Assembly (NCBI GenBank): GCA_963713975.1
Contig: OY970218.1
Span: forward strand, 3,040,001-3,104,000
Reading direction: 5' to 3'
Length of the DNA stretch: 64,000 bases
Source: an uncultured Chloroflexia bacterium
GTDB lineage: Bacteria; Chloroflexota; Limnocylindria; Limnocylindrales; CSP1-4
The notes below the pieces were generated by a model, which saw only the letters and a list, made by a program, of their open reading frames with translations, was not told the DNA's origin and did not search any database. Below, piece after piece: positions 1,577-58,512 of the stretch (positions within the stretch are counted from its first letter, which is position 1; every line of letters starts with the position of its first letter). Both the position numbers and the translations under genes were made by a program.

Positions 1577-1980
1577 CGCCCATCCTCGTGGACAGCAATG
1601 TGCTGATCGACGTTCTCTCCGAGCCCGGGCCGTGGTCATCGTGGTCCGCCAACGCCCTGCGCCGTGCGGCCGACGAGGCCGCGGTGGTGATCAACGCCAT
1701 CATCTTCGGCGAGGTGTCGATCGGATTCCCGACCGTCGAGACCCTAGACGAGGCGCTCCCTGCCGCATGGCTCCGCAGGGAAGATGTGCCGTACGCCGCC
1801 GCGTTCCTCGCGGGCCGATGTTTCATCGACTACCGGAGATGCGGCGGGTCGCGCCTGTCGCCCTTGCCGGACTTCTACATTGGCGCACACGCCGCGGTCG
1901 CCGGCTACCGGCTGCTCACGCGTGACGCCACCCGGTATCGGACGTACTTCCCCACCCTCGAGCTGATCGCGCCGGAGTAG
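1573..1980 (+). CDS. vapC: PIN-domain toxin
   Basis: ILVDSNVLID ... PDFYIGAHA ... LLTRD PIN motifs. Confidence 0.92.
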   Translation: MTPILVDSNVLIDVLSEPGPWSSWSANALRRAADEAAVVINAIIFGEVSIGFPTVETLDEALPAAWLRREDVPYAAAFLAGRCFIDYRRCGGSRLSPLPDFYIGAHAAVAGYRLLTRDATRYRTYFPTLELIAPE

Positions 1981-1994
1981 GGGAGGACCCGCCG

Positions 1995-2909: not shown

Positions 2910-3039
2910 CCCTTGCGGCCAGGCGACTGGACAAGGGCCCGATTCCTCACTTCCGATAAGGTAAGTTATGTCTTCTCTGTGAGCGTGGTGCTCGTGTAGG
3001 CGATCGCTGATTCCCCAACGGGCTATTGCCGGCGACCTG

Positions 3040-41600: not shown

Positions 41601-44150
41601 TCACAGCTCGTCTCCATCGCCATCGAGGGAGCCATCGGGACCGTCGTCGCCACGCAACACAACTCTGGCGTTGGAGCCGTCGAAGGCACCGATGTACCTG
41701 CGAGCCTCGAGTTGGTCAATAATCCGGGCAGCCCGGGCGTAGCCGATCTTGAGACGCCGCTGGAGCAGCGACGCCGAGGCGCGATCGTACTCCCGAATGA
41801 CCCCTACCGCGTCCATCAGCAGGCGGTCGGCCTCGTCATCGGCCAGTTCGTCGACCGATCCGGTGGCCTCGCCGGTGAGCGACGTGATCGACGTGTCATA
41901 GCGTGGGTCCTCGATCTGCTCGCACCAGCATTTCACGATCCTGGCGATCTCGGCGTCCGAAACAAACACGCCCTGATGCCGAATGGGCCGCGGCACGTCG
42001 GATGGTTGGTAGAGCATGTCACCGCGGCCGATCAGGTCCTCAGCCCCTGGCGTGTCGAGAATGGTCCGGCTGTCGATCTGGCTGGCCATCGCGAACGCGA
42101 TCCGGCTGGGGAAGTTCGCCTTGATCAACCCCGTGACAACGTTGACCGAAGGCCGCTGCGTCGCGAGCACCATGTGGATGCCGGTGGCCCGCGCCTTCTG
42201 GGCGAGGCGGACGATCGGGTCCTCGACGTTCTTGCCTTCGCGCATCATCAGGTCGGCGAGCTCGTCGATAATGATCACGATGTACGGCATGCGGCGACGC
42301 TCGTCGATCCGCCGCTCCGGGTCAGGGCTCTCAGCGAGATCGTTGTAGGCGCGGATGTTGCGCGCCGCATGGGCGGCGAACGTCTTGTAGCGCCGCTCCA
42401 TCTCCAGCACAACCCAGTTGAGCGCAGCCTTGGCCTTCTCGGGCTCGGTGATGACCGGGACCAGGAGGTGCGGCAGTTTCTCGCCCTCGCTGTACGACGC
42501 GAGTTCAACGCGCTTGAGGTCCATCAAGATCATCCGGACCTCGCGCGGCGTTGTGTTGCATAGCAGACTCGTGATTAGGGCGTTGACCATGACGCTCTTG
42601 CCGGAACCGGTGGCGCCGGCGATGAGCAGATGCGGCATCCGGGCGAGATCCACTGCCCGTGCCCGGCCAGCGACATCGCGGCCCAGAGCGAAGGTAAGGC
42701 GGGATACACCGGGATCAGCGAGGTCTACCTCATCGAGAATCCGCCGAAGTGCGACGAGGTTGGACTCCTGGTTGGGGATTTCGATGCCTACCGCGGCCTT
42801 GCCGGGGATCGGGGCCTCGATCCGGATGCTGCGGGCGGCCAACGCCATCGCGAGGTCGTCGGACAGCTCCTTGATCCTGCTCAGTTTGATGTGAGCTGCT
42901 GGCTGGACCTCGTACTGCGTGACGACCGGCCCTGCGTTGCGGCCGATGATCTCCGCCTCGATCCCAAAACTCGCCAGTTTCCTCTTGATTAGCGCCTCAT
43001 TGTTCTTGTGGACGACCGAGCTGTCCTCAGGCTGCGTCGGCGGATCCCCGAGGTCGAGGAGATCCCGGGCCGGCAGTTGAAATTGCGCACCGTCCACGGT
43101 GATGGCCGCCCGCGAGGCGTCCAGAGGCGCATCGTCCGGGTGACCCATGGTCTCGGGCGACATGGCTCCCAGAGCCACAGTCCCCATCGTCCGAGGCACT
43201 CCTCCGCTGCTGTTCGTGTCCCCAATCGGCGCTTCACCGGCGTAGCCCTCGACGCCGGAGCCGACTGGAGCGCCGTTCATCCCCGATGACTCGGTCACAC
43301 CAGGCACGCGCGGCCGCGCAAACGTCGCAGACATCGGACCCGCGGTCGCGACGACAACCGGCAGGATGGCGCCGGTGTCCTCGCCGAAGGCCCCCGTCTG
43401 GCCAGGGGACTCAACGGCCGGGATCTTCTGGCCACGCCCGCGTCGGCCGGCATCCGCGGCTGAACCGTTGTTGGTCGTGGTGGTCGCGCCGGCCCCCGCG
43501 GCGGCCGCCCTGGTCGTCACCGTCGCCGGCGCCTTGGGGGTGCGGTCCTGGAGCGAGCCGCCGGCCACCTTGGCCAGGCCCGTCGCCGGCGCCAGCATGG
43601 AGCGCAGGGTGCGGTCAAAGGCGATGAGGAGCCCGGCAAGCAGGAGCACCAGCATCACCACGAACGCGCCGGGGGCCGTCAGCAGGGGCTCAAGCAGGCC
43701 GACGACGAACCGCCCGATCCGGCCGCCCGTGAACTCATTGAACTGGACCAGCTGGATGAGGCCGAGCAAGCCCACGTAGGCCATGCCGATGCCCAGGAGC
43801 GTGCGACCCCAGGGTGCTCCCGGCTCCTTGCCCGGCCCCCACTCCACGTACCAGCCCGAGAGGAGGAGCACGAACGGCAGCAGCCAGCGCCCTGTCCCGA
43901 AGAATGGCCCGGAAAGGTTGCGCCACCAGTCGGTGAGGCTGCCCTCGCCAGGGAGCAGGAGCGCGATCATCGTCACTGCCCCCAGGCCGAGCAGGAAGAT
44001 GCCGACCAGCGACCGGATAACTGCCGGCGAAAGCCCCAGCGAGACCTTGGGCAGCGGCAGGCCGCCGCCCTTCGAACGACTGCGCGACGCCGGTGAGCGC
44101 GTCGTCCGGCGCGTGGTGGAGCGCGGCGGCGTCCGCCGCGACTTCGCCAT
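41601..44150 (-). CDS. ftsK: DNA translocase FtsK (membrane-anchored)
   Basis: About 4 N-terminal TM helices, linker, motor (GATGSGKS, IDELADLM), gamma SLLQRRLKIGYARA. Confidence 0.93.
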   Translation of the reverse strand: MAKSRRTPPRSTTRRTTRSPASRSRSKGGGLPLPKVSLGLSPAVIRSLVGIFLLGLGAVTMIALLLPGEGSLTDWWRNLSGPFFGTGRWLLPFVLLLSGWYVEWGPGKEPGAPWGRTLLGIGMAYVGLLGLIQLVQFNEFTGGRIGRFVVGLLEPLLTAPGAFVVMLVLLLAGLLIAFDRTLRSMLAPATGLAKVAGGSLQDRTPKAPATVTTRAAAAGAGATTTTNNGSAADAGRRGRGQKIPAVESPGQTGAFGEDTGAILPVVVATAGPMSATFARPRVPGVTESSGMNGAPVGSGVEGYAGEAPIGDTNSSGGVPRTMGTVALGAMSPETMGHPDDAPLDASRAAITVDGAQFQLPARDLLDLGDPPTQPEDSSVVHKNNEALIKRKLASFGIEAEIIGRNAGPVVTQYEVQPAAHIKLSRIKELSDDLAMALAARSIRIEAPIPGKAAVGIEIPNQESNLVALRRILDEVDLADPGVSRLTFALGRDVAGRARAVDLARMPHLLIAGATGSGKSVMVNALITSLLCNTTPREVRMILMDLKRVELASYSEGEKLPHLLVPVITEPEKAKAALNWVVLEMERRYKTFAAHAARNIRAYNDLAESPDPERRIDERRRMPYIVIIIDELADLMMREGKNVEDPIVRLAQKARATGIHMVLATQRPSVNVVTGLIKANFPSRIAFAMASQIDSRTILDTPGAEDLIGRGDMLYQPSDVPRPIRHQGVFVSDAEIARIVKCWCEQIEDPRYDTSITSLTGEATGSVDELADDEADRLLMDAVGVIREYDRASASLLQRRLKIGYARAARIIDQLEARRYIGAFDGSNARVVLRGDDGPDGSLDGDGDEL

Positions 44151-44153
44151 CCG

Positions 44154-45821
44154 CTAGACCTCGACGACCACGGGGAAGACCATCGGGCGGCGCTTCGTCT
44201 GCTCGTACAGGAAGCGCGACACGCCGTCCTTGATCTGGACCTTGAGCAGCGCGATCTCGGAGATCCGGTCACCAGGCGAGTTCACGGCCACCTCGATGCG
44301 GCGGATCGCCTCCTCGATGATCCGGTCCTCCTCGGGTCCGTGGACGAACCCGCGGGTGATGATCTCGGGGCGCCCGACGACCTTGCCGTTCTGCTTGTCC
44401 ACCTGGACCACGATCATGAACATGCCGTCGTTGGCGAGCGCGCGACGGTCGCGCAGGACGATGTCGCCGACCTCGCCCACGGACAGCCCGTCCACGTACA
44501 GGTACCCGGCTGCGACCGGCTGGCCACGTCGGGCGCTGCCGTCCTCGAAGATCTCGATCGGCGTGCCGTTCTCGATGATGAACACGTTGCCGGGGTCGAC
44601 GCCGGTCTCGGTCGCCAGGCGGCCGTGCTGCACCAGCATCCGGAACTCGCCGTGCATCGGGATGAAGTAGCGCGGCTTGGTGAGCCCGAGCATTAGCTTG
44701 AGCTCCTCCTGGCTGGCGTGGCCCGACACGTGGGCCCGCTTGATCGCGTGGTAGAAGACGTTGGCCCCGGCCTTGAACAGGTTGTCGATGGTCCGCGCCA
44801 CGTATTCCTCGTTGCCCGGGATCGGGCTGGCCGACACGATCACGGTATCCCCGGGCTGGATCTCCACGAACCGGTGGTCGCGGTTGGCCATGCGGGCCAG
44901 GCCCGCCATCGGCTCACCCTGGGCCCCCGTGGTCGCGATGACCAGCTTTTCCGGCGGCACGTCCTTGATCTTGTCCTTGCCGACGACCATCGACGGCTCG
45001 TACTTCAGGTAGCCGAGGTCCGTGGCGATCCGGAAGTTCTGCTCCATGGAGCGGCCGATGACCGTCGTCTTGCGACCGAGGTCCGCGGCTGCATCGAGGA
45101 CCTGCTGGACGCGCGCGATGTTGCTGGCGAACGTGGCGATGATCACCCGCCCGTCCAGCGGCTCCATGATCTCGCGGAAGGCCTCTCCCACGATCCGCTC
45201 GGACGGCGTATAGCCCGGGTTCTCGGCGCGGGTCGAGTCCGAGAGGAGGCAGATCACGCCCTCCTCGCCCAGGCGGGCCAGGATGTGGAAGTCGGACAGC
45301 CTGCCGTCGACCGGCGTGTGGTCGAACTTGAAGTCGCCGGTGTGCACGACCGTCCCGACCGGCGTCCGCAGGGCGATGCCCATCGCGTCCGGGATCGAGT
45401 GGCCGATGCGGAACGGGATCGCCGTGAACGGCCCGATCGGCAGCTCGTCGCCGGGCTCCAGGGAGTGCAGCGGGTTGTTGTGGAGCTTGTGCTCCTTGAT
45501 CTTGTTGCCCAGGAGGCCACGGGCCAGGGTGCTGGCGTAGACCGGCACGCCGGGGAACTCGGGCAGCACGTAGGGCAGGCCGCCGACATGGTCCTCGTGG
45601 GCGTGGGTGATGAGGAATGCGCGGAGCTTGGAGCGGTTCTCCTTGAGGTAGGTCACGTCTGGAACGACGAGGTCGATGCCGAACATCTCCTCGTCGGGGA
45701 ACATCAGTCCGCAGTCGATGACGACGATGTCGTCGCCGTACTCGAACACGTAGCAGTTCTTGCCGATCTCCCCTACCCCACCGAGCGGGATGATGCGGAG
45801 CGGCGTGTTCGGATCAGCCAT
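44154..45821 (-). CDS. rnj: Ribonuclease J
   Basis: PLGGVGEIGKN, THAHEDH, HSIPD, HVSGH, PMHGE. Confidence 0.95.
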   Translation of the reverse strand: MADPNTPLRIIPLGGVGEIGKNCYVFEYGDDIVVIDCGLMFPDEEMFGIDLVVPDVTYLKENRSKLRAFLITHAHEDHVGGLPYVLPEFPGVPVYASTLARGLLGNKIKEHKLHNNPLHSLEPGDELPIGPFTAIPFRIGHSIPDAMGIALRTPVGTVVHTGDFKFDHTPVDGRLSDFHILARLGEEGVICLLSDSTRAENPGYTPSERIVGEAFREIMEPLDGRVIIATFASNIARVQQVLDAAADLGRKTTVIGRSMEQNFRIATDLGYLKYEPSMVVGKDKIKDVPPEKLVIATTGAQGEPMAGLARMANRDHRFVEIQPGDTVIVSASPIPGNEEYVARTIDNLFKAGANVFYHAIKRAHVSGHASQEELKLMLGLTKPRYFIPMHGEFRMLVQHGRLATETGVDPGNVFIIENGTPIEIFEDGSARRGQPVAAGYLYVDGLSVGEVGDIVLRDRRALANDGMFMIVVQVDKQNGKVVGRPEIITRGFVHGPEEDRIIEEAIRRIEVAVNSPGDRISEIALLKVQIKDGVSRFLYEQTKRRPMVFPVVVEV

Positions 45822-45838
45822 GGTCGCCTCGATGCCGG

Positions 45839-46573
45839 CTAGAAGAGGGTGAGCTGGGATGCGTCGTCGGCCGCGGGATCGGCGGCGGACGGCGCAGGGG
45901 CATGAATGGGAGCGCTCGCGGGAGTGGAGGTCGGCGCTACGACAGGCGCTGCAGGCGCCGTGGCCTCGGCCTGGCGATCGCGATGGGCGCGGGCACGCAC
46001 CAGGACCTCGGGGACGCGCGCCATGTCCTCGAAGCTCTCGCGCTCGATGGCGGCCGTGCGCAGGGCGGCCGCAGGGTGATACATCGCGAACACGAGGGCA
46101 TCGAGGGCACCGGTCTCGGGGTCCGCCGCCACGCTGGTCCCGTGAACCTGTCCGATGCGTGCGCCGGGCATGAACGTGCCCATCGAGTAGCGGCCGAGCG
46201 TCACGACCATCGCCGGATCCAGCACCTCCAGCTGTCGTCGGAGGTGCGGCGCACAAGCGGCGATCTCGTCGGGCTGCGGGTCGCGGTTGTCGGGCGGCCG
46301 GCACTTCACGACGTTGGTGATGAACACGTCCTCACGCCGCCAGCCGATGCTCTCGAGGAGCCGTACCAGAAGTCCGCCGGCCCGGCCGACGAAGGGCCGT
46401 CCGTCGCGATCCTCGTTGAAACCCGGGCCCTCGCCCACGAAGACCACCTCGGTGTCAGGGTCGCCCTCGCCCGGAACCGCCTGCGTCCGCGTCTCGTGCA
46501 GGCGGCAGCCGGTGCAGGCACGGACATCGTTCGCGATCAGCTCGAGCGCCGCAAGGCGCTCGTCGCGGGTCAC
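45839..46573 (-). CDS. Family 4 uracil-DNA glycosylase
   Basis: CxxC, GEGPG..ED, PFVG, KCRPPDNR, HPAA. Confidence 0.93.
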   Translation of the reverse strand: MTRDERLAALELIANDVRACTGCRLHETRTQAVPGEGDPDTEVVFVGEGPGFNEDRDGRPFVGRAGGLLVRLLESIGWRREDVFITNVVKCRPPDNRDPQPDEIAACAPHLRRQLEVLDPAMVVTLGRYSMGTFMPGARIGQVHGTSVAADPETGALDALVFAMYHPAAALRTAAIERESFEDMARVPEVLVRARAHRDRQAEATAPAAPVVAPTSTPASAPIHAPAPSAADPAADDASQLTLF

Positions 46574-47697
46574 GCGGGTATTCCCCCGGACGCTCCCACG
46601 GCAACTCCGGACGCTCCCGCGCCGGATCCCGTCGCTCCCGCGGCGGCTCGCTCGCTGCCCTTGCGGATCCAGCCTCGCTCCACAAGGACCTCGGCGATCT
46701 CCACCGCGTTGGAGGCCGCTCCCTTGCGCAGGTTGTCAGACACGACCCAGAACGCGAGGCCGCGATTAGCCGCGATCGAGGGATCCTGGCGTACCCGGCC
46801 CACGAACACGAGGTCCGAGCCGGCGGCGTCCATCGCGAGCGGGTAGACGTTGTTGGCAGGATCGTCCTGGACGACGACGCCCTTGACCTCGGCGAACAGC
46901 TCTCGGGCCCGGTCGGGCGTGATCGGGTCGCGGGTCTCGACGTGGACCGCCTCGGAGTGGCTCACGAACACCGGCACGCGGACGGCCGTGCACGAGACAC
47001 GCAGCTCCGGCAGGTGCAGGATCTTGCGGCTCTCGGTGACGACCTTCCACTCCTCCTTCGTGTACCCGTTGTCCAGGAACACGTCGATGTGCGGAAGGGC
47101 GTTGAAGCCGATCACGTGCGGGTAGACCGTGGCGGTCTTCTCGCGACCTTCGGCGTGGGCCTTGACCTGCTCGTCCAGCTCCACGATCGCCTTCTGGCCC
47201 GTGCCCGCCACCGCCTGGTAGGTGTCCACCACCATCCGTTCGATGCCGACCGCGTCACGGAGCGCCATCAGTGGCGGCATGAGCTGCATCGTCGAGCAGT
47301 TGGGGTTGGCGATGATCCCCTCGTGCCACGCCAGGTCGTCCGGGTTGACCTGGGACACGACGAGCGGCACGTGAGGATCCATCCGCCACGCGCTCGAGTT
47401 GTCGATGACCGCTGCCCCGCGCTTCGCCGCTTCGGGCGCCAGCTCCTTGGAGGTACCGCCACCCGCGCTGAACAGCGCGATGTCCACGCCCTCGAACGCG
47501 TCCGGCGTCGCGAGCTCCACGGTGATGTCCTTGCCGTTCACGGTCACGACCTTGCCGGCCGAGCGCGCAGAGGCGAGGAGACGCAACTCCGTGTACGGGA
47601 GCCGCTTCTCGAGGAGCACCTGGATCATGGTCCGGCCGACGGCGCCGGTGGCGCCGACGACGGCGACGGTGAGCTTCTCAGGGCTGGTTTCGGGCAT
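46570..47697 (-). CDS. asd: Aspartate-semialdehyde dehydrogenase
   Basis: GATGAVG, DNSSAWR, ANPNCST, DNLRKGAA. Confidence 0.95.
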   Translation of the reverse strand: MPETSPEKLTVAVVGATGAVGRTMIQVLLEKRLPYTELRLLASARSAGKVVTVNGKDITVELATPDAFEGVDIALFSAGGGTSKELAPEAAKRGAAVIDNSSAWRMDPHVPLVVSQVNPDDLAWHEGIIANPNCSTMQLMPPLMALRDAVGIERMVVDTYQAVAGTGQKAIVELDEQVKAHAEGREKTATVYPHVIGFNALPHIDVFLDNGYTKEEWKVVTESRKILHLPELRVSCTAVRVPVFVSHSEAVHVETRDPITPDRARELFAEVKGVVVQDDPANNVYPLAMDAAGSDLVFVGRVRQDPSIAANRGLAFWVVSDNLRKGAASNAVEIAEVLVERGWIRKGSERAAAGATGSGAGASGVAVGASGGIPA

Positions 47698-47798
47698 GGT
47701 CCGACCTGTTAGCGATAGGTTGTCGGGCACGGCGGGAGTATACCAGCGGGCTCCGGCGCGACCGCCGGGCCGGTCGCGCGGGCGGGCGCCTGGTCACG

Positions 47799-48809
47799 TC
47801 ACGCGTCCCTCGCACCCATGGACCCGGGCGCCGCTCCGCCGTGCCACCCGGCCAGCTCGCGCGCCAGGCCGGCGCAGACCTCAAGAGCGATGTCCGCGAA
47901 GGCGTGCGAGGCGGGGGTCCGGAAACGGTCGCGGTGCCAGATCAGGGCCACACGTCGTGGCGGCAGGTCCGTTGGGATGATGACCACCGACGGGTCCGAA
48001 GGATCTGTCGCGAGCAGCGGGACGAGCGCGACCCCAAGCCCGGCGCCGGCCATCGCCTGGACCGTCCCGTTGTCCTCGGAGCGGAACACGAACGTGGGTT
48101 CGACTCCCCGGGACCGGAGGTGCTCTTCTGTGTCCTTCATGCTGCCGCCGGATCGGAAGCCGATCAGCCGCTGTGCCCCGATCACCTCCAGCGCCGGATT
48201 GGATGGCGTGCTGGCAAAGGGCGAGTCTGTCGCCGCGACCAGCACGTACGGGTCCCGGACGAGCTGGACCGCCTCGAATGGCCCTGGCGAGACCGGCAGC
48301 GTCCCGAACGACAGGTCGATGGCCCCAAGCTCCACCAGCTCCCACAGGCCCTCGTCGTTCGCCTCGGTGAGCCGGACCTCGATGCCCGGCCACACCTGGG
48401 CGAAGCGCGTCATCACCGCCGGCAGGACCCGCGTCCCCACGCTCTGGAAGACCCCCACTCGGAGCGTCCCGGTCTCACCGGCCGCATACGCCAGCAGGTC
48501 GGCCCGAGCCGCCTCCAGCCGGTTGGTGATCGCCAACGTGTGGCGCAGCAGGAGCTCCCCCGCCTCGGTGAGCGCCACCGTCCGGCGCCCGCGCGATCGC
48601 TCGATCAGCCGCACGCCGAGCGCCGCCTCCAGCGCGGCGATGTGCTGGCTCACCGCCGGCTGGGTGTAGTCGAGCGCGGCCGCCGCGGCATGGAACGAGC
48701 CCTCCTCGGCCACCGACCGGAAGCTCATCAGCTGGCGCAGGCTCAGGTCGGACAGGGCGTCCGGCAGGACGACGGGCACCGCGGACGACCGATCACGTGC
48801 GTTTATCAT
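47799..48809 (-). CDS. LysR family regulator (start uncertain)
   Basis: SF.AAA.L.YTQPAVSQHIAALE HTH; LTEAGE. Confidence 0.92.
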   Translation of the reverse strand: MINARDRSSAVPVVLPDALSDLSLRQLMSFRSVAEEGSFHAAAAALDYTQPAVSQHIAALEAALGVRLIERSRGRRTVALTEAGELLLRHTLAITNRLEAARADLLAYAAGETGTLRVGVFQSVGTRVLPAVMTRFAQVWPGIEVRLTEANDEGLWELVELGAIDLSFGTLPVSPGPFEAVQLVRDPYVLVAATDSPFASTPSNPALEVIGAQRLIGFRSGGSMKDTEEHLRSRGVEPTFVFRSEDNGTVQAMAGAGLGVALVPLLATDPSDPSVVIIPTDLPPRRVALIWHRDRFRTPASHAFADIALEVCAGLARELAGWHGGAAPGSMGARDA

Positions 48810-49049: not shown

Positions 49050-49499
49050 TCAGGCGTCGCCTCGGTCAGGGGCCGGCCGCACCATCCACTGCTCCGGTTC
49101 CCCGAGCGGCTCGAACCCGAACCCCGCGTAGAGGCCGTGCGCGTCCTGGGTCGCGAGCATCATCCGCTTGAGGCCCTGCAGCCGGGGGTCGTCGATGATT
49201 GCGGCCATCAGCCGCTTCCCCACCCCGCGCCCGCGGTTGGACTCGTCGACGAGGACGTCGCAGATCCAGGCGAAGGTTGCCTCGTCGGTGACCACCCGCG
49301 CAAACCCGACCTGCCGACCATCGACGTATGCCCCGAAGCACAGGGAGTGCATGAGGGACCGCTCAAACACGGAACGGCTCCGCCCCAGCGCCCAGTAGGA
49401 GCGCTCCGACAGGGCCGGAAAGAGCCACCCGAGATCGAGTTCGGCCGGGTCCGTGGTGATCCGCACGTCGCCCTCGGGATACTCGAGTCCGGCCGTCAT
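49050..49499 (-). CDS. GNAT acetyltransferase
   Basis: SYWA..., GFARVVTD, RGRGVGK, DAHGLY. Confidence 0.9.
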   Translation of the reverse strand: MTAGLEYPEGDVRITTDPAELDLGWLFPALSERSYWALGRSRSVFERSLMHSLCFGAYVDGRQVGFARVVTDEATFAWICDVLVDESNRGRGVGKRLMAAIIDDPRLQGLKRMMLATQDAHGLYAGFGFEPLGEPEQWMVRPAPDRGDA

Positions 49500-49646
49500 G
49501 GGGTGATGGTACGCGGCATGACACAGCGGAACCCCTGCGGAGCGGTGGTTGTCCGGCCTATGATCCGGATGACCTGGCCACCGCAAATGGTGGCGCGTGC
49601 TCGTCCCGGACCGCGCCGATATGGACTGCAAAGCACCGGAGGCACC

Positions 49647-50324
49647 GTGGAAACCACCCGCAAGGCACCCTACTCCGTCTCCAACGACGGCACGGGGCCG
49701 TACGCCATGTTCACCTGCGAGTCGTGCGGGCGCGACTACCGCGCGCAGCCGGTCCTCGTGGAGGAGGTCAAGGAGACCCTCGCCAAGTCCGCCTTTGGCG
49801 GGTTCCTGCGCAACATCCCGATCGTCGGCGACGCCGCCGCGAACCAGGTCGACAACGACCGCTATCGGAACACGCTGACCAACGACGAGCTCGAGAAGGC
49901 CTGGGCAGAGGTGAAGGTCAACTTCGCCGAGTGCCAGTCCTGCCGCCGGGTCGTGTGCATCCCCGACTTCGACATGGCCTCCGGCTTCTGCAAGGAGGAC
50001 TCGCCGCGCAGCGAGGAACTCCAGGCGCGGGATGCACAGCAGGCCGGCGCAGCCGCCGCGGGCTTCGTGAGTGGCATCGCGAACGTGTTCGGGATCTCCG
50101 ATGCGATGAAGGCCGCGGCCGCCCAGCAGTCAGCTGGGGTCGCGCCGGGTGCCGCGCCGGCGGCCACGTGCGCCTCCTGCGGGGGTGCGCTGGCGGCAGA
50201 GGCGAAGTTCTGCGCCAGCTGCGGAACGCCCGTGCCCAGCAAGGCCTTCTGCACCGGCTGCGGGAAGGAGCTCGCGGCGGGCGCGAAGTTCTGCGCCCAC
50301 TGCGGCCAGCCCGCGGGCGGATGA
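49647..50324 (+). CDS. Zinc-ribbon (double zinc ribbon) protein
   Basis: CESC, CQSC, and C-terminal CASCG..KFCASCG / FCTGCG..KFCAHCG. Confidence 0.8.
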   Translation: METTRKAPYSVSNDGTGPYAMFTCESCGRDYRAQPVLVEEVKETLAKSAFGGFLRNIPIVGDAAANQVDNDRYRNTLTNDELEKAWAEVKVNFAECQSCRRVVCIPDFDMASGFCKEDSPRSEELQARDAQQAGAAAAGFVSGIANVFGISDAMKAAAAQQSAGVAPGAAPAATCASCGGALAAEAKFCASCGTPVPSKAFCTGCGKELAAGAKFCAHCGQPAGG

Positions 50325-50416: not shown

Positions 50417-53002
50417 TTACTGGGCGAGGTGCCGCTGCATCGCGGCCTTGCGGGACAGGTTGACCCGGCCCTGGCGGTCGATCTCGGTGACCACCACCAT
50501 GACCTCGTCGCCCACCGACACGACGTCCTCGACAGACGGCACGTGGTAGTCGGCGAGCTCGCCGATCCGGATCAGGCCTTCCTTGCCCGGCAGGATCTCG
50601 ACGAAGCACCCGAAGGTCATCAGGCGCGTCACCTTGCCCAGGTACAGGGATCCGATCTCGACCTCGCGGGTGAGGCTCTCGATCCAGTTGATCGCCTTCT
50701 TCGAGTTCTCGCCGGAGACAGCGGCGATCTCCACCGTGCCGTCGTCCTCGACGTTGATCTCGGTACCGGTCTCCTCCTGGATCTTGCGGATCATCGATCC
50801 ACCCTTGCCGATGATCTCGCGGATCTTCTCGGGGTTGATCTTGATCGTGATGATCCGGGGGGCGAACTCGGACATCTCCTGGCGAGCCGAAGGCAGGACC
50901 GAGGTCATCTTGTCCAGGATGAACAGGCGGGCGGCGAGCGCCTGCTTGAGGCCCTCGCGGATGACCCGCTCGTCGATGCCCTTGACCTTGATGTCCATCT
51001 GCAGGGCGGTGATGCCCTCCGTGGTCCCGGTGACCTTGAAGTCCATGTCGCCGATCGAGTCCTCCTTGCCGAGGATGTCGGTCAGGACGACGAAGTTGCC
51101 GGTGTCACCGTCGAGCACGAGGCCCATCGCCGCGCCGGCGACCGGCGCCTTGATCGGCACGCCCGCGTCCATGAGGGCGAGGGTCGAGCCGCACGTCGAC
51201 GCCATGGACGTGGAGCCGTTGCCGGACACGACCTCGGACACGAGGCGGATAACATAGGGGAACTCCTCCTGCGTCGGGAGCACCGGCAGGAGCGCCCGTG
51301 CGGCGAGGTTGCCGTGCCCGATGTCCCGGCGGGACGGCCCGCGCATCGGCTTGTTCTCGCCGGTGCTGTAGGGCGGGAAGTTGTAGTGGTGGAGGTAGCG
51401 CTTGGACAGCTCGGGGCTGATGGTGTCGATCCGCTGGACGTCCGAGGACGGCCCGAGCGTGGCGACGGTCAGCGCCTGGGTCTGCCCGCGGGTGAACAGG
51501 CCGGAGCCGTGCGCGCGCGGCAGGAGGCCGACCTCGACCGAGATCGGGCGGATCTCGTCGGTGGCGCGGCCGTCCATGCGGATGCCCTCGCTGAGGACGA
51601 GCGCTCGGACGGTCTTCTTCTGGACGAGGCCGAACAGGCTCTTGCTGAACCGGGCATTGCGACGGGCTGCCTCGAGCAGGCGGGCGGACTCGTCCTTGTC
51701 GGTCCGGGTCGCCCTGACCGCGCCGGCGATGCCGTCCTTGAGTCCCTCGATCCGGCCGGGCAGGTCGTTGCCGAACCAGATCAGCAGGTTTGCCGTGGCT
51801 TCGGCGTCCGGCAGCGCGCGATGGTTCTCGCTGAGCTCGACGCCGAAGAACTTGGCCAGGGTCCCGAGCTTGTAGTTCTCGAGATCCGGGTAGCCCTCAC
51901 GAGCGATGACGAGCGTGTCCAGGTACGCGCCCTGGGGGATGCGGGTGCCGTCGCCGAGGGCTTCCTCGATGAACGCGATGTCGAACCCGACCGAGTGGCC
52001 GACGAGCGGCGCACTCCCGACGAACTCGAGCGCCTTGCGGGCGGCCTCGGCCGACGCCGGCGCGTTCTTGACGTCCTTGTCGGTGATCCCGTGCATCTGG
52101 TTGCCGACGATCGGCCGGCCCGGGTTCACGAGCGTGGACCAGCGGTCGGTGATCTTCCCGGCCTTGACCCGGACGGCGGCGATCTCGACGAGGTCGGCCA
52201 TCTTGGGATCGGTGCCGGTCGTCTCGACGTCCACGACCACGAACTCGCCGCCCGCCTTCGCCAGGTCGGCGAACTTGAGCACGGAGTCTGTGAGCGGCTC
52301 GAGGTACGGGACGAGCTTGGGCTTGCCGACCAGCTCGCGCAGCTTCTCCTGAATCTCGACCAGGGGCAGCAGGGAGCGCTGGGCGAACAGGATCGCCTCG
52401 GCCATCACGTCCTCGGGGAGGACCTTGACGCCCGCCTCGACCATCATGATCGCGTCGCGGGTGCCGGAGACGACCAGGTCGAGCTCGGAGTCCTGGAGCT
52501 CGGTGTAGGTCGGGTTGAGGACGAACTCACCATTGATCCGGCCGACGCGAACGGCGCCGACGGGACCCTGGAACGGGATCTCGCTGATGGACAGGGCGGC
52601 GGACGCCGCGATCGTCCCGAGGATGTCCGGGTCGTTCTCCTGGTCCGTGGACAGCACGGTGACCACGAGCTGGACGTCGTCCTTGTAGCCCTCGGGGAAC
52701 AGCGGACGGATCGGGCGGTCCGTGAGCCGGGCAGCGAGGGTCGCCGCCTCGGACATACGGCCTTCGCGCTTGATGAAGCCGCCGGGGATCTTGCCGGCCG
52801 CGTACATCCGCTCCTCGAACTCGACGGTGAGCGGGAAGAAGTCGAGACCGGGCCGCGGCAGGCTGCGGTTGGCCGTCCCGAGGACGAGGGTGTCCCCGTA
52901 ACGGAGGGTGACGGCGCCGCCGGCAAGGCCGGCGAGCTTGCCGGTCTCGAGCGTGAGCGTACGACCGCCGAACTCGATCTCGAGCGTGGTGGGTGTGGGC
53001 AC
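50417..53002 (-). CDS. pnp: Polyribonucleotide nucleotidyltransferase with an inserted DEDDh exonuclease domain (861 aa)
   Basis: FFPLTV, DRPIRPLF, RRDIGHG, GDMDFK, KH and S1 domains; AAGGAGG RBS before GTG 53002. Confidence 0.95.
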   Translation of the reverse strand: MPTPTTLEIEFGGRTLTLETGKLAGLAGGAVTLRYGDTLVLGTANRSLPRPGLDFFPLTVEFEERMYAAGKIPGGFIKREGRMSEAATLAARLTDRPIRPLFPEGYKDDVQLVVTVLSTDQENDPDILGTIAASAALSISEIPFQGPVGAVRVGRINGEFVLNPTYTELQDSELDLVVSGTRDAIMMVEAGVKVLPEDVMAEAILFAQRSLLPLVEIQEKLRELVGKPKLVPYLEPLTDSVLKFADLAKAGGEFVVVDVETTGTDPKMADLVEIAAVRVKAGKITDRWSTLVNPGRPIVGNQMHGITDKDVKNAPASAEAARKALEFVGSAPLVGHSVGFDIAFIEEALGDGTRIPQGAYLDTLVIAREGYPDLENYKLGTLAKFFGVELSENHRALPDAEATANLLIWFGNDLPGRIEGLKDGIAGAVRATRTDKDESARLLEAARRNARFSKSLFGLVQKKTVRALVLSEGIRMDGRATDEIRPISVEVGLLPRAHGSGLFTRGQTQALTVATLGPSSDVQRIDTISPELSKRYLHHYNFPPYSTGENKPMRGPSRRDIGHGNLAARALLPVLPTQEEFPYVIRLVSEVVSGNGSTSMASTCGSTLALMDAGVPIKAPVAGAAMGLVLDGDTGNFVVLTDILGKEDSIGDMDFKVTGTTEGITALQMDIKVKGIDERVIREGLKQALAARLFILDKMTSVLPSARQEMSEFAPRIITIKINPEKIREIIGKGGSMIRKIQEETGTEINVEDDGTVEIAAVSGENSKKAINWIESLTREVEIGSLYLGKVTRLMTFGCFVEILPGKEGLIRIGELADYHVPSVEDVVSVGDEVMVVVTEIDRQGRVNLSRKAAMQRHLAQ

Positions 53003-53124
53003 GTGTAAACGACCTCCTTGGTCGTGGACGGAGGAGCGACTGCGGCGGGTGGGGCCGGGTTTCGCCTGGGAGCCGTATTCGATCGACCCCGGGGCATGGC
53101 CCGGGGTCAGTGATGCGGCGAGTC

Positions 53125-53394
53125 CTAGCGGCGAAGGCCGAGCGAGCCGATGACGGCGCGATAGCGCGCAGGATCCTTCTTCACGAGATACGCGAGAAGG
53201 CGACGGCGCTGACCCACGAGCTTGAGGAGACCGCGGCGCGAATGATTGTCCTTCGGGAAGCGGCGGAGGTGCTCCGTCAGGTCCCGGATCCGCTCCGTCC
53301 GGAGCGCGATCTGGACCTCGGGCGAGCCGGTGTCGCCGTCCTTGACGGCGTAGGCGGCAATGACCTCTTGCTTCTTTTCCCGCGCGAGCGGCAC
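53125..53394 (-). CDS. rpsO: 30S ribosomal protein S15
   Basis: [10 protein letters not shown]...[20 protein letters not shown]; 89 aa. Confidence 0.97.
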
Positions 53395-53504: not shown

Positions 53505-54887
53505 TCAACCCGCCAGCGTCATCGCCAGCTCGGGCCGCAGCAGGAACGGGGGCAGGAAGGACGGCAGGTTCGAGAAAGGCAGGACGTCCGGGTGGAGATC
53601 GATCCCCAGGGCATCGCGCATGAACGCCCGGCGCGCCTCGATCCTGCGCCATGCATCAGGGTAGGCGGACGAGAACGCCTGTCGCAGGCCATCGTCGGCC
53701 AGCGCCAGGCCGTCCTCGATGTTGGTCGTGAACCAGGGCGTGCCGGTCGCCGGGATGATGTCTGCCTGGAGCGCCATCCCGGACCGGAGCTCGACCGTGG
53801 AGCCTGGGCCGATCGGCGAGTTGACCCACTCATCGAGATGGAGCTGGTGGCCCGGGTTGAGCCCGACCCCGAAGAAGGGGTCTCCCAGCCGCTGGTCGAT
53901 GATGGCCTGGAGCACGCCTCCCTGCTGCCCGACATGGAGCGCCCGATACCAGGCCGCAACGGCCTCGAAGTACGGGCCCACCAGCCGATCGACGTAGTCA
54001 CCGACACCATCCGGCAGCCCGGTGGCGTCCTCCACCACGAACCCCGCTCGACAGTTGAGCGAACCCCAGATCCCGAACGCGACGGTCAGGGGATCGCCCT
54101 TCTCGATCGGCCGGTCCCCCGGGCTGAGCAGGCCCAGGCGCGCGCGAGGCCCGGCCGTGAGCATCAGGTGGCAGGACAGCGGGGTGCCGTCCCAGCCCAA
54201 GAGGCGAACCGCCTCCGCCTCGGTCATCCCCGGCCGCAACCCGGCGAGCAGGCCGCGAATGCCGTTCGAGGTGCGGCACGCGGCATGTTCGAACACGGCG
54301 AGCTGGTCCACGTCGTTGATGACGCGCATGCCGTCGGCCGGGTCGATCAGCAGGCCGGCCGCATTCTCCACCCGCCCGGCTGCTCCAACGAGCGACCTGA
54401 TCGTGTCCGCGATGTAGGCGGGGACCTCAATCGTCGTCGGGTCGGCGAAGGTCTTCCAACCCACGACGCCCACCCGCGAGCCGGGTCCGACGCCCTCGTC
54501 CGCCAGGATCGTGGCAAGCATGCGGGAGCGATCCCGTGGCTGGCTGGGCAGGCTGAAGTCCTGGAACAGCTCCCGGCGCATCTCCAGCGGGGCCTCGCCG
54601 GCCGTCCCCCAGCACTCGTTGCCCACCAGGACGAGGGGCGGGTCGTCCGCGCCGACCACGAGCAACGCCTCCTCGAACCTGGGGTCGAACCCTGTCAGGT
54701 AGGCGACGTTCGCGCTGTGCTCCCGGTCCGCATAGACCACGATCCGGTCGTAGCCACGGCTGTCGGCGCGGGCGCGGAGCGCCACGATGCGCTCGGCGTA
54801 GCGCCCCCCGGGCAGCTCAGGCCGCGGGCCGGGTGGGCCGAACTCCGGCAGATCGATCGGAGCGAGTCGCGCAGGTCCCTCCCGCAT
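53505..54887 (-). CDS. M24-like (Xaa-Pro aminopeptidase-related) protein
   Basis: [27 protein letters not shown]. Confidence 0.75.
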
Positions 54888-56602
54888 CACCCGCCGCCCT
54901 CCAAGGCCGGCGGCACCCAGGGCACAGCACCGCTGGTGCCACGCTTGATCTCCACGAACTGGTTCGCGTCCACGGTGACCCACGGTCCAACCTCACCGTC
55001 CGGCCACGTCACCCGGACGTCGGCTCTCGTGGCGCCGCCCAGCCCCACGTGGAGCGGGCCGAGCCGGCCACCGATGTGTCCGCCGCCGATGGTGAGCTCG
55101 CGTCGAAGGATGGCCTCCCCCACCCTGACCTCGACGATGCTGCCGATGGCATCCCGGTTGCCGGCGGGTTGCACGACGCGGATGCCCAGCCAGCTGCCCA
55201 TCGCGGACGCGGCATCGGCCGTCCCCGCCCCGACGTTCCGCCACACCCGGACCGGCTCATCGACGTTGACCTCCACGAGGTCCGGCAGGCCGTCGAGGTT
55301 GAGGTCCGCGAGCGTCGCTCCACGGCCCAGGCCCATGCTCAGGATCCCTGCCTCCAGCGCACCCTCCGTGAACGTCCCGTCGGGCTGCCCCAGGAACAGG
55401 TTGCTGGGATCCTCCTTCGCGTAGTCCGCCACCCCGCCCACGTTGCCCTTGGAGACGAACAGGTCCACGAAGCCGTCGTTGTTGACGTCCTCAAACTCCG
55501 GGTGCCAGGCCGTCGACGGCAGGACATCGCCGCCGGTGAACGGCACGGCGGCGTTGACCCCTCGCTTGAGCGCGATGTCCCGGTACGTCGGCTGGGCGGG
55601 CCCGGCGAGCAGGGTCTGGAGCTTGTTGTCGCCCTGGCTGGTGAGATAGATCTCCGGCAGGCCGTCTCCGGTCAGGTCCTGGCTCGCGATGCCCATCCCC
55701 CAGATCTGCATGCTGACCCAGCCATCGTCGGCGGTATAGGCGCGCGGCGCGGCTCCGGGATCCATCCGCCACAGCTGGTCCGAGCCATCCGAGTAGTAGT
55801 GGCGGTCGTTGGTGACCCGCAGGTCCCTGCGGAGGGCCCCGTCCCACGAGCTGAACAGCATCGACAGCGTGCAGTAGCCCGGGGCGAGGGTCTCGGGAGC
55901 GGCGTAGCCACCCGCTTCCGTGGCGGGACGGTACAGGAGGCTCGGCTCGCAGTCGAAGGTCGGCTCGTGCGCGGCGTCGAGGGTCACGTAGTTGCCGAGG
56001 GCAAGGGTCGGCATGGCGGCGTAGCCTTCCCATGTCGCCGAGAGTGCCGTCGTCCATGCCTCGGGTGCGGCGAACCCCCAGGCCTCGTTGGCCCGCTCGA
56101 ACCGGCACCCACCCAGGCCCCGCAGGAGCACCGACTCCCCCACCCTGAGCACGGCCAGGTCCGTGCGCCCGTTTCCGTCGATATCGACCGGATAGGCACC
56201 CGTCACGCCCTCGAGGTCCGTCGCGGCATCGGCGATCCGCACGAAACGCAGCGCCCCACCGACGTCGCCGTCGTTGTGGAAGAGACCTGCCGGACCCGAG
56301 CCGCCGGCGACGTAGACATCCGGGCGGCCGTCCTCGTCGCAGTCCAGCACGGCGAGGCCTCCGCCGGTTGCATAGGTCACGCCGCCGCCGTACGTATGGC
56401 CCAGACCCGCTCCTGTGGTCTCCTCGATGAAGTGAGGCGCGCCAAGGGCAGCCTGCGGCGTGGACGACCCGACTCCGCGCACCGCCACGATGATGCCGAT
56501 CACGACGGCGACAACGACCACGACGAGTCCCGCCGCCCAACGGCCGACGCGACGCCGGCCGCCTGACCGGGGCACGATCGTCTCGCTGCCGGCCCCGCTC
56601 AC
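54887..56602 (-). CDS. CRTAC1/ASPIC-UnbV family FG-GAP repeat protein
   Basis: N-terminal TM; repeated DxDxDGxxD; C-terminal NRDAIG...HVGLG...VTWPDG. Confidence 0.88.
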   Translation of the reverse strand: MSGAGSETIVPRSGGRRRVGRWAAGLVVVVVAVVIGIIVAVRGVGSSTPQAALGAPHFIEETTGAGLGHTYGGGVTYATGGGLAVLDCDEDGRPDVYVAGGSGPAGLFHNDGDVGGALRFVRIADAATDLEGVTGAYPVDIDGNGRTDLAVLRVGESVLLRGLGGCRFERANEAWGFAAPEAWTTALSATWEGYAAMPTLALGNYVTLDAAHEPTFDCEPSLLYRPATEAGGYAAPETLAPGYCTLSMLFSSWDGALRRDLRVTNDRHYYSDGSDQLWRMDPGAAPRAYTADDGWVSMQIWGMGIASQDLTGDGLPEIYLTSQGDNKLQTLLAGPAQPTYRDIALKRGVNAAVPFTGGDVLPSTAWHPEFEDVNNDGFVDLFVSKGNVGGVADYAKEDPSNLFLGQPDGTFTEGALEAGILSMGLGRGATLADLNLDGLPDLVEVNVDEPVRVWRNVGAGTADAASAMGSWLGIRVVQPAGNRDAIGSIVEVRVGEAILRRELTIGGGHIGGRLGPLHVGLGGATRADVRVTWPDGEVGPWVTVDANQFVEIKRGTSGAVPWVPPALEGGG

Positions 56603-58512
56603 GTGCCAGCCACACCGGCGTAGTAGCGCTGGGCCAGGGACCAGGCGCCGATCCCGCATTGGGAGCCCACGCGGCGGCCCTCGAGGTCGTCTGGCTCCAC
56701 GTGGATCCCGCCCCACAGGCGGGATCTCCCTGCCTGGTCCGCGGCGTCGAAGTACGTGGCCCACTCCAGGCGGATGTCCGTCGTCGGACCGGCTTCGAAC
56801 TTCAGCGACCCTGGCTTGATCGTGTAGGAGCTCTCCCCGCCCGGGAAGTACTCGCTGCCGGTGAACCCGGTCAGCACCTCGGCCGCGGCCCGGCTGAACG
56901 AGCTGTGGCCCGACACGTAGCCCGGGAAGGACGGCGTCACGAAGGTCGGGAGCTGGTAGGGAATCCAGTCCACCGCGCGGATCCAGCCCACGCCGGCGGT
57001 CTCGTTCTTCGGATCCTCCGGGGTTCCGGCCCAGGACAGGACCGCGATCTCGTTCTCGTGACCTGCGAGGGAGGCGTGCCGGCCCCCGGGGGCCGTGGAC
57101 GCACGGGTGATCAGCTCGATGAGGTCCGGGACCAGGGGCAGGCCCTCCGGGTCGTAGGACGGCTGCGCCGGGTCGCTCGACTGGCCCCGGCCACCCATAT
57201 AGCGGATCATCGAGATCGGCCGGACGCTGTCGTAGTAGCCCTTCAGGCCCCAGGCCGCGATCGCGGCGTCGTGGACCGCACCGTTCAGCGCGAGGTAGAG
57301 CTTCGTGTCCCACTCCAGGCGGTCGACCGGGTCACCGGTTCCGCCAACCCGGAGGTCGGGGTCGATCTCGTCCGACACGAGGTTCGCCAGCACGTTCCAG
57401 TGGCCGGGCGGCGTCTCCGAGCTGGGCCCGTCCGCCCAGAACTCGGCCATCACGCGTCCGTAGTCTCCCTGCAGGACGACGTCGGGCTCGTACGCCTGGC
57501 CCGTGACGGGGTTCACCGGGTGGCCGGTGCCATCGTCGGTGCCGAGATCGTTTGCGCCCATCGCATCCGGCGAGATGTCGATCAGGACGCCGTCCGACGG
57601 ATCGAGGAGGCTGCTGAGGCGGATCACCTCGACGGCGGCGTCCTTGTAGGCCTGGTCGGTGACGGGGTCGCCGAGCTGTGGCGGCGGACCCGGGTCGATC
57701 GGCGTGCCCGTGCCGCTGTCCACGGGAAGTGCGAATCCCTCCACGTGGCCCCAGTGGGGGCCGATGGCCTGCTGGACGCCGTTGGTGACGGGGATGCCGT
57801 TCTGCGAGATCATGTGCTCGATCTGCAGCGGCTGCCAGTGGTTCGGGTCCGTCATCGTGGCGCCCGGCTGGCTGACCACGAGGGGCGGGTTGACCGGCTT
57901 GTAGGCCGGCGCCGCGTAGCCGCCATCCTCGTTCGAGCCGTCGCCCTTGCTGTCCGCGATGACCGCAGCCGCGATGCGGTTCCCCAGTGCCGCCGGCGAG
58001 TCGCCCTCGGTCGTGACGATGTCAACCGGATAGCACAGGGCGTCCATGACGTCGGCGAACTCCGACAGCGAGTCCGAGCCGCCCGTGGCCTTGATGTACC
58101 GCTCGTTGAGGACCCGGTACGCCGCGTAGCTCATCGCCTCCTCGCGGGCGGCCGTCACGTCGTCCGCGTTGTGCTTCTCGGTCAGGAGGTAGCCGCGGGC
58201 GTTCTCATCGTAGGCGGCCCAGGCGTCCCACATCGCCACCGAGGTGTGGAACAGGTTGCGGGCATGGACGGTGGGCGCCGGCAGGGCCCTGCGGATCGCG
58301 TCCAGCAGCACCTCGTCCCAGCGACGTGCGACCGACCATTCCGGGTGGTCCGCAGCGGGCGGGCAGCTGGGAGCCGACACCCATGGCCGCGCGACGGCCA
58401 CGCCAACGCCTGCGATGACCACGAGGACGACCACCGCTGTGATCCCGGCAATCCGGCCCGTGCGCGCGCGTCGGCGCGGCGCCGGGGCGTCAGCGATCTC
58501 CGCCTGATCCAT
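56599..58512 (-). CDS. Vanadium-dependent haloperoxidase/PAP2-like protein
   Basis: K-x6-RP (KGYYDSVRP), PSFPGYVSGHS, SRLWGGIH. Confidence 0.85.
   Translation of the reverse strand: MDQAEIADAPAPRRRARTGRIAGITAVVVLVVIAGVGVAVARPWVSAPSCPPAADHPEWSVARRWDEVLLDAIRRALPAPTVHARNLFHTSVAMWDAWAAYDENARGYLLTEKHNADDVTAAREEAMSYAAYRVLNERYIKATGGSDSLSEFADVMDALCYPVDIVTTEGDSPAALGNRIAAAVIADSKGDGSNEDGGYAAPAYKPVNPPLVVSQPGATMTDPNHWQPLQIEHMISQNGIPVTNGVQQAIGPHWGHVEGFALPVDSGTGTPIDPGPPPQLGDPVTDQAYKDAAVEVIRLSSLLDPSDGVLIDISPDAMGANDLGTDDGTGHPVNPVTGQAYEPDVVLQGDYGRVMAEFWADGPSSETPPGHWNVLANLVSDEIDPDLRVGGTGDPVDRLEWDTKLYLALNGAVHDAAIAAWGLKGYYDSVRPISMIRYMGGRGQSSDPAQPSYDPEGLPLVPDLIELITRASTAPGGRHASLAGHENEIAVLSWAGTPEDPKNETAGVGWIRAVDWIPYQLPTFVTPSFPGYVSGHSSFSRAAAEVLTGFTGSEYFPGGESSYTIKPGSLKFEAGPTTDIRLEWATYFDAADQAGRSRLWGGIHVEPDDLEGRRVGSQCGIGAWSLAQRYYAGVAGT

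Follow-up and report, generated by a model that had tools for sequence, protein, structure and literature searches.

A polynucleotide phosphorylase with a DEDDh exonuclease domain nested between its RNase PH domains in Limnocylindria

The window analyzed here is a stretch of 64,000 nucleotides (contig OY970218.1 of assembly GCA_963713975.1, positions 3,040,001 to 3,104,000 of the forward strand) from an uncultured bacterium of the phylum Chloroflexota. Its subject is pnp, the gene for polynucleotide phosphorylase (PNPase), which lies on the minus strand at 50417..53002, stop codon included. The frame is uninterrupted over 861 codons, from a GTG at 53002 to the stop at 50417. Open reading frame (ORF) translation, Pfam, NCBIfam and a search of the genome identify the product as an 861-amino acid (aa) PNPase into which a DEDDh domain is nested. 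No second pnp was found in the 3.62-Mb, single-contig source genome, where only an S1 protein and RNase PH were matched. Judged from its sequence, the organism's sole PNPase is a conserved chimera in which the catalytic residues of both enzymes are kept.

The gene occupies its native position. Directly upstream on the same strand is rpsO (53125..53394), whose translation is typical of ribosomal protein S15 and ends in SLGLRR before the stop codon; its start was inferred. The rpsO-pnp order is the usual locus of the PNPase gene. It had been recognized in an earlier note on this DNA, and is confirmed here, with rpsO ending near 53125 and pnp following. The intergenic leader of 122 nucleotides (53003..53124, minus strand) contains a GC-rich hairpin (CCCCGGG...CCCGGGG) and an AAGGAGG Shine-Dalgarno sequence 9 nucleotides before the GTG start. 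Rfam gave no match at the gathering score for the pnp leader or for other RNAs in the window.

All domains of the protein are encoded on the minus strand. The first RNase PH domain (PH1), placed by Pfam and alignment at about aa 1-228 (52319..53002), ends in VGKPK. A linker with one helix (aa 229-254, 52241..52318; helix 239-249 in the structure model) forms the entry to a DnaQ-like, DinG/PolC-type DEDDh domain, a predicted 3′-5′ exonuclease (aa 255-407, 51782..52240), which is assigned by PF00929 and fold matches and has the same interval in the genome scan. It is followed by a three-helix remnant of the PNPase alpha-helical domain (aa 408-472, 51587..51781), recognized by the model helices, the tail of PF03726 and conservation. 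The second RNase PH domain (PH2, about aa 473-700, 50903..51586) is phosphorolytic by Pfam assignment and by its residues, given below. The KH domain (aa 718-775, 50678..50851) and the S1 domain (aa 781-852, 50447..50662) complete the protein.

In Pfam, the 861-aa protein matches RNase_PH twice (E-value 8.4e-51), RNase_PH_C twice, KH_1 and S1. The RNase_T profile (PF00929) is matched over its full length (1-164 of 164) at aa 255-407, with an E-value of 7.9e-27 and 95.2 bits against a cutoff of 24. TIGR03591, the NCBIfam equivalog for PNPase, scores 934.1 bits against a cutoff of 525, in two stretches separated by the insert. The order of PH1, DEDDh domain, shortened helical segment, PH2, KH and S1 that had been read from the letters is borne out by Pfam, with RNase_T indeed nested between the RNase_PH domains, and the interval estimated for the insert, about 51780-52250, agrees with the 51782-52240 found here. 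The GC content across 51750-52349 is 0.67-0.71, with no step at the insert.

The ExoI, HGIT, ExoII and ExoIII motifs named at first reading are all present, and the D-E-D-H-D set is intact. Its codons on the minus strand are 52229-52231 (D258), 52223-52225 (E260), 51980-51982 (D341), 51821-51823 (H394) and 51806-51808 (D399). We aligned 41 fusion proteins from three families of the class, which we call f1, f2 and f4, with four canonical PNPases (alignment A1). Each of the five DEDDh residues is retained in 41/41 fusion proteins. In PH2, RR558-559, H563, S597, S599, D648, D654 and K656, which we take to be catalytic residues that bind phosphate or metal, are unchanged in 45/45 rows. Human PNPase is reported to bind phosphate through the equivalent Ser, His and Arg residues (PMC12685370). 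In an alignment of the insert only (A2), comprising 30 sequences with identities down to 40%, the motifs DxETT, HG, HxxxFD, DT and HRxxxD are invariant (30/30).

Ratios of nonsynonymous to synonymous substitution rates (dN/dS) were calculated by the Nei-Gojobori method for 15 pairs among six genes of one genus. They are 0.13-0.54 in the exonuclease domain, 0.14-0.24 in PH1 and 0.07-0.21 in PH2, and the linkers are the fastest-evolving parts. By this measure, the insert is under purifying selection, with a dN/dS comparable to that of PH1.

The model of the full-length protein has a mean predicted local distance difference test (pLDDT) score of 82.4, with the blocks of the insert at 84-95, and matches solved PNPase chains with E-values of 1e-70 and identities of 36-41%. 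A separate model of aa 225-470 reaches a pLDDT of 90.9. In a Foldseek search with this domain model, the top match is a PolC exonuclease (root-mean-square deviation 2.2 Å over 162 columns, 36% identity), and the other top matches include Staphylococcus aureus DinG with single-stranded DNA (ssDNA), DnaQ domains and the epsilon subunit, all with a probability of 1.00. The expectation that the insert folds as a DEDDh domain is upheld, in that the top matches are all DnaQ-type exonucleases. RNase T enters the list only from rank 12, below PolC, DinG and DnaQ. A PDB sequence search with the insert gave PolC (6.5e-23) and DinG (5.5e-14), and also Cas2-DEDDh, DnaQ, epsilon and ExoX chains, but no RNase T or Orn chain at an E-value of 1e-5 or below. 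The best NCBIfam models for the insert are likewise DEDD-exonuclease, PolC and DinG models. The predicted fold is of DnaQ type, and both the sequence and the fold ranking place the insert with PolC, DinG and DnaQ, not with RNase T and Orn.

The insertion came at the expense of the domain that connects PH1 and PH2. The PNPase alpha-helical profile, PF03726, leaves only a tail below threshold in the fusion protein (aa 450-479, profile positions 51-80 of 81, 19.8 bits against a cutoff of 24.6), and no match was found in the f4 and f2 fusion proteins at an E-value of 0.01 or below. By contrast, PNPases of two sister families have the full domain (positions 4-81 of 81 in f5 and 6-81 of 81 in f3, with two proteins scanned). 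In the model, one helix (239-249) precedes the exonuclease domain and three (396-431, 436-450 and 454-472) follow. Because only these flanking helices are kept, the last of which is the part that still resembles PF03726, the alpha-helical domain is mostly replaced by the DEDDh domain, not merely split. The shortened helical segment described from the sequence was therefore right, as only the PF03726 tail remains, but a simple insertion between intact domains was not, given the full domain of the sister lineages. The remnant at aa 408-472, helical over 413-472, is rich in conserved Arg and Lys (R430, R447, R448, K462 and R466). In human PNPase, the alpha-helical domain is reported to contact the RNA substrate near the active site (PMC12685370).

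Another observation on the host enzyme concerns a loop in PH1. At aa 74-80 (window positions about 52763-52783), this loop reads GGFIKRE, where E. coli PNPase has the FFRR loop. Among the fusion and canonical PNPases of the class, R79 never varies, and F76, I77 and K78 reach a conservation of at least 90%. The loop is therefore a trait of the class and not of the fusion.

The fusion is widespread among relatives. A word-indexed protein search with aa 225-470 found at least 120 clusters at 90% identity, and all of those listed combine PF00929 with RNase_PH. Among the clusters listed, which come from NCBI, ENA and JGI, lengths are mostly 858-864 aa, the rest being partial, and identities over the insert are 71-92%. 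Where named, the sources are Candidatus Limnocylindrales or Chloroflexota metagenome-assembled genomes, and by these source names, the fusion-bearing clade is Limnocylindria. Automatic annotation calls the proteins either "polyribonucleotide nucleotidyltransferase" or "DNA polymerase III epsilon subunit family exonuclease".

We surveyed 201 genomes of the class, in five families (f1-f5), using aa 225-470 as the query at an E-value of 1e-5 or below. Matches occur in f1 (60/60), f2 (7/7) and f4 (64/66); among those listed, nearly all cover the full query, including both PNPase flanks, in open frames of about 860-1000 aa. The two f4 genomes that have no match reflect assembly gaps, since one lacks an assembled pnp and the other has a pnp broken at contig ends. 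In f3 (62/66) and f5 (1/1), the query matches the exonuclease core alone at about 40-46% identity, and translation shows these to be DEDDh-DinG helicase proteins. These tallies, and those for the DinG helicase given below, include nine unpublished genomes, which contributed no sequence to the analysis and without which f4 is 60/62 for the insert query and f3 is 57/61 for both. The pnp genes of f3 and f5 are canonical in the 5/5 genomes examined: the proteins have about 740 aa and match aa 6-239 and 455-855 only. Four other PNPases of Chloroflexota, used as an outgroup, are also canonical, at about 740 aa, and have no insert. The architecture is therefore conserved in relatives, with three of the five families carrying it.

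In a survey of 401 genomes of the phylum, flank-spanning matches occur only in f1 (23/23), f2 (4/4) and f4 (16/16), and no fusion was found outside the class, in roughly 355 of these genomes. Eight further genomes have matches to the domain only, and the two that were checked (L055 and L056) have no PNPase flanks. A search of all proteins gave 13,517 matches at 1e-10. Ten proteins among the best 150 were scanned with Pfam: one was a fusion, one had no family, and the remaining ones were PolC-type or VRR-NUC-, GIY-YIG- or UVR-linked. Independent PNPase-DEDDh fusions may exist elsewhere in life.

A different architecture, in which two or three DEDDh domains occur in tandem, was seen among the matches of this search, in P0135, P0148, P0153, P0165 and P0174. 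P0135 (1045 aa) has three RNase_T domains and a UVR motif.

To follow the host gene, we built a PNPase core tree with the insert columns removed, from 30 fusion proteins, the f3 and f5 proteins and four outgroup PNPases, leaving out the fifth outgroup locus, L059, and the P-numbered rows of A1 except P0001. The domain trees do not include the four rows labelled PNP, which are fragmentary members of the same family. In the core tree, the fusion PNPases form one branch (Shimodaira-Hasegawa-like approximate likelihood ratio test, SH-aLRT, 100) and the f3 and f5 proteins another (99). The inserts also form one clade, with a support of 98 in a quick tree of 131 rows and 100/96 in a more careful tree of 55 rows. 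The split between f4 and f1 plus f2 is common to the insert clade and the host gene. Because the inserts form a single clade whose internal split is that of the host gene, the trees indicate that the insert was acquired once, in the ancestor of three families spanning two or more orders, and has since descended vertically. A recent horizontal patch, which was also considered, is excluded by this agreement of the insert tree with the host-gene tree and by the even GC content at the insert.

In the careful tree, the insert clade lies inside a group of 30 rows (ultrafast bootstrap 90, SH-aLRT 85). The other labelled rows of this group are 12 DinG N-terminal domains, seven of them representatives and five from the class; five rows are unlabelled. 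PolC-, GIY-YIG- and FAN1-linked domains fall outside this DinG-type group. A narrower origin, namely descent from the DinG resident in Limnocylindria, is neither supported nor firmly rejected by the sequences.

The distribution of DinG is complementary to that of the fusion. The DinG helicase part was found in none of the genomes of f1 (0/60), f2 (0/7) and f4 (0/66), i.e., 0/133, versus 62/66 in f3 and 1/1 in f5; it was likewise not found in the source genome. Of the 61 genomes with a completeness of at least 90%, 46 contain a single PF00929 match, namely the pnp insert in the case of f1 and f4 and DinG in the case of f3 and f5. In the same scan, three genomes of genus g1 each have a second match, and these second matches differ in kind. 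The source genome has three PF00929 matches: the pnp insert, a 188-aa DnaQ-like protein and a weak YprB-like protein. None of them is Orn-like.

Two loci of the source genome were inspected in this connection. Locus L029 encodes, at 1456-2022 on its minus strand (G000:C1, about 3379669-3380169), the stand-alone 188-aa DEDDh protein, whose best matches, all sub-threshold, are to DnaQ or "3′-5′ exonuclease" models. Locus L030 (G000:C1:2841323-2844559) has an ORF at 652-2133 (minus strand) for a 493-aa protein that has no NCBIfam match and whose N-terminal region weakly resembles RNase_T/RNase H. Upstream of it, with a 4-nucleotide overlap, is an ORF for 366 aa at 2130-3230 (minus strand) with a Cys-rich motif at its end. 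The layout of this pair recalls what we take to be that of the MrfA/MrfB repair pair, a helicase and a YprB-type exonuclease.

The searches below suggest a reduced set of RNA-decay enzymes, consisting of RNase J, PNPase, RNase PH and an NrnA-like protein. The RNase J gene is 4.6 kb from pnp (window positions 44154-46304), and RNase PH is also encoded in the source genome, in which RNase E/G gave no match. RNB, the domain of RNase II/R, was found in 0/201 genomes of the class, irrespective of whether the family carries the fusion. A link between RNB loss and the fusion was considered and is excluded, because the fusion-free families also lack RNB; this absence is context, not cause. The earlier note had asked whether the genome lacks orn and nrnA. 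Although no Orn-like protein appears among the PF00929 matches, a gene for a 343-aa NrnA-like DHH/DHHA1 protein adjoins truB, so a lack of both is not supported, even if the match is weak (70 bits against an equivalog cutoff of 350).

How might the chimera work? The PH2 site would degrade RNA in the 3′-5′ direction by phosphorolysis. The insert would be an active, metal-dependent and phosphate-independent hydrolytic 3′-5′ exonuclease carried on the PNPase trimer, and would act on single-stranded 3′ ends held on or beside the ring. In solved PNPases, the helical domain is found next to the 3′ end of the RNA, and by analogy, the insert is expected to be located near the phosphorolytic site. Since it is the sole DEDDh domain in most genomes and the fusion lineages lack DinG, it may have taken over the tasks of the DinG-borne exonuclease of the sister lineages, and it could give a lineage that lacks RNase II/R a hydrolytic route beside PNPase.

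Published work on the two parents is compatible with such a combination. The DEDD domain of Bacillus subtilis DinG is described as degrading ssDNA in the 3′-5′ direction and the RNA strand of hybrids, and as removing R-loops (PMC12525004). The combination is plausible because PNPase itself has reported roles with ssDNA and in DNA repair, namely, in B. subtilis and E. coli, in double-strand break repair and in the degradation of ssDNA (PMC2709576, PMC3241651, PMC5379764).

Given the retention of both sets of catalytic residues, we lean towards the view that the protein is a general bifunctional nuclease, phosphorolytic and hydrolytic, working 3′-5′ mainly on RNA and hybrid 3′ ends. A more specific account is possible, and we offer it tentatively. 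According to it, the DEDDh module, the only one of the cell, was transferred from the DinG helicase to the PNPase ring in the ancestor of most Limnocylindria and the helicase was then lost, which would have yielded one trimeric machine that couples phosphorolytic and hydrolytic 3′-5′ degradation of RNA, R-loop RNA and ssDNA ends.

Several points weigh against these proposals. We infer the activity of the insert, its metal, its polarity and its substrate (RNA, RNA:DNA hybrid or ssDNA) from sequence. The support for the DinG-type group is moderate (90/85), and in the larger, quick tree, the group is replaced by a polytomy with GIY-YIG- and FAN1-linked domains. Forcing the insert together with the resident Limnocylindria DinG costs 10.4 log-likelihood units (approximately unbiased test, AU, p = 0.055). 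The complementary pattern of DinG and the PNPase insert maps to one branch, and is therefore a single evolutionary event, not a replicated correlation. As RNB is absent class-wide, its absence does not explain the fusion. Finally, pnp carries one or two frameshifts in each of three assemblies: L062 (G152), L063 (G195) and L064 (G162). Two are within the exonuclease part, one of those in G152 is in PH1, and that in G195 is at aa 393/394, adjoining the ExoIII histidine. A frameshift would destroy the sole PNPase of the cell, and for this reason, we regard all of these as probably assembly indels.

The first alternative to the bifunctional nuclease is that the insert is a DNA-maintenance exonuclease with PNPase as a mere scaffold, i.e., a 3′-5′ nuclease for ssDNA and R-loops that replaces DinG and contributes little to bulk RNA decay. 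The nesting of the insert among DinG exonuclease domains, the lack of DinG in all 133 genomes of f1, f2 and f4, and the fact that the nearest solved structures are DNA enzymes are in keeping with this idea. However, the host is the sole PNPase of the cell and has intact KH and S1 domains and an intact phosphorolytic site, and DEDDh enzymes often act on both sugars. Moreover, the DinG pattern is one event, and the AU test speaks, at a borderline level, against a common origin with the resident DinG. We therefore consider this alternative unlikely, despite the reports cited above of PNPase in double-strand break repair and ssDNA degradation (B. subtilis and E. coli) and of R-loop removal by the DinG exonuclease (PMC12525004). 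An ssDNA or repair-type activity was already among the options raised in the earlier note; as a prediction, this option gains from the DinG-type placement of the insert and the lack of DinG in the fusion families.

Another option raised there was a dedicated nanoRNase, in which the DEDDh domain would hydrolyze the 2-5-nucleotide limit products of PNPase, so that decay is completed on one machine. The insertion is in a domain reported to adjoin the RNA 3′ end (PMC12685370), there is no Orn-like protein among the three PF00929 matches of the source genome, and the class has no detected RNB (0/201). This rationale is weakened by two findings, however: the NrnA-like DHH/DHHA1 gene next to truB, even at 70 bits against 350, and the PolC/DinG/DnaQ type of the insert, with RNase T and Orn giving no PDB sequence match at 1e-5 and RNase T ranking lower by fold. 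In addition, the fusion-free sister families do without such an activity. A dedicated nanoRNase thus seems quite improbable.

A non-catalytic module, with the DEDDh fold acting as a platform for binding RNA or protein or replacing the alpha-helical domain structurally, has nothing specific in its favor, although inactive DEDD-like domains occur in other proteins. It is hardly credible given that the five catalytic residues and the HG, HxxxFD and DT motifs are invariant (30/30 and 41/41) at insert identities down to 40%, and that dN/dS is like that of PH1.

An assembly or annotation artifact, either a chimeric contig or two genes joined as one, is virtually excluded by the single stop-free frame with even GC content across the insert, by the identical architecture of the gene in over 100 independent assemblies, some of them single-contig genomes, and by short metagenome contigs that derive from relatives in four public runs and bridge each junction. 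The bridging contigs are records 26, 30 and 31 of X3, records 9, 10, 11 and 15 of X15, records 18 and 23 of X18, and record 7 of X1. In the public sequencing runs, at most 0.20 of the sampled words were found per run, the pieces being short contigs of relatives that carry no information on expression level or habitat, and the bridging contigs add little beyond the many assemblies.

PNPase ranks among the best-conserved enzymes of RNA decay, and its arrangement of five domains is regarded as constant all the way from bacteria to human mitochondria. In the present case, an entire environmental clade appears to have turned the linker domain beside the active site into another nuclease that uses a different chemistry. 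Should both sites prove active, the protein would be a natural experiment in which phosphorolysis and hydrolysis are coupled on one ring. It could then show how 3′ ends are transferred between sites, how decay is organized in the absence of RNase II/R and RNase E/G, and whether PNPase's debated roles at DNA and R-loops are reinforced by a dedicated exonuclease. The chimera would also be a clean example of a catalytic domain that switched its host protein, from a DinG-type protein to PNPase. If the transfer from DinG is true, the protein would be a one-polypeptide bacterial counterpart of the eukaryotic exosome-Rrp6 pairing, and would link RNA decay directly to genome maintenance. It should interest specialists in both fields.

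We now note the remaining genes around pnp. Downstream, on the minus strand, are ftsK (41601-44150), the RNase J gene (within 44154-46304), a UDG-superfamily gene (45839-46573), an aspartate-semialdehyde dehydrogenase gene (46570-47730) and a LysR regulator gene (47799-48809). A convergent ORF on the plus strand (49137-50324) ends 93 nucleotides from the pnp stop and encodes a C-terminal double zinc ribbon (DZR, Zn_Ribbon_1). Its 5′ part is overlapped by an ORF for a GNAT acetyltransferase (49050-49631, minus strand), and therefore only one of the two frames can be fully real there. Upstream of rpsO, minus-strand ORFs for 492 aa (53505-54983) and 374 aa (55491-56615) match no Pfam family at an E-value of 1e-5 or below. 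The 492-aa ORF overlaps long opposite-strand ORFs, which are common at this GC content.

A search of the full-text literature found no description of a PNPase-DEDD fusion, its scope leaving aside subscription-only papers, supplementary files and domain-architecture databases; the earlier note likewise knew of no described example. The fusion can nonetheless be compared with several known systems. Canonical PNPases (TIGR03591; structures 7ogl, 4aim and 8wxf from E. coli, Caulobacter crescentus and Mycobacterium tuberculosis) have the same order of PH1, PH2, KH and S1, and share the rpsO-pnp locus and the phosphate- and metal-binding residues. The fusion differs from them by about 160 extra residues, which are the DEDDh domain, and by a PF03726 match that does not rise above threshold.

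The N-terminal DEDD domain of DinG (B. subtilis, S. aureus; PDB 8zef) has the same fold and motifs as the insert, which is 40-46% identical to the DinG exonuclease of the sister families. Unlike the DinG exonuclease, the insert has no helicase attached and is embedded in the subunit of a phosphorolytic RNase ring. The best sequence and fold match to the insert is the proofreading exonuclease of PolC (PDB 9qpc and 2p1j). PolC is also similar in that its DEDDh domain lies within another domain; in P0237, for example, PHP (234-588) surrounds RNase_T (321-473). However, the host of this domain is a DNA polymerase and its function is proofreading, and PolC domains are outside the insert's group in the tree. 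RNase T and oligoribonuclease, which are dimeric, have the DEDDh motif set and general fold in common with the insert, but are not nearest to it by sequence or fold.

The pairing of a PH-type ring with a hydrolytic 3′-5′ exonuclease of the DEDD superfamily also has counterparts. In the eukaryotic exosome, a PH-type ring works with Rrp6 (DEDD-y) and Rrp44, which are separate polypeptides. The Caulobacter degradosome is reported to contain PNPase and RNase D, and in human mitochondria, PNPase is reported to be followed by REXO2 (PMC4245959, PMC7261184). In each of the three, the partners are distinct polypeptides, from DEDD subfamilies other than that of the insert, whereas the fusion joins the ring subunit and the predicted exonuclease in one chain, at a 1:1 stoichiometry.

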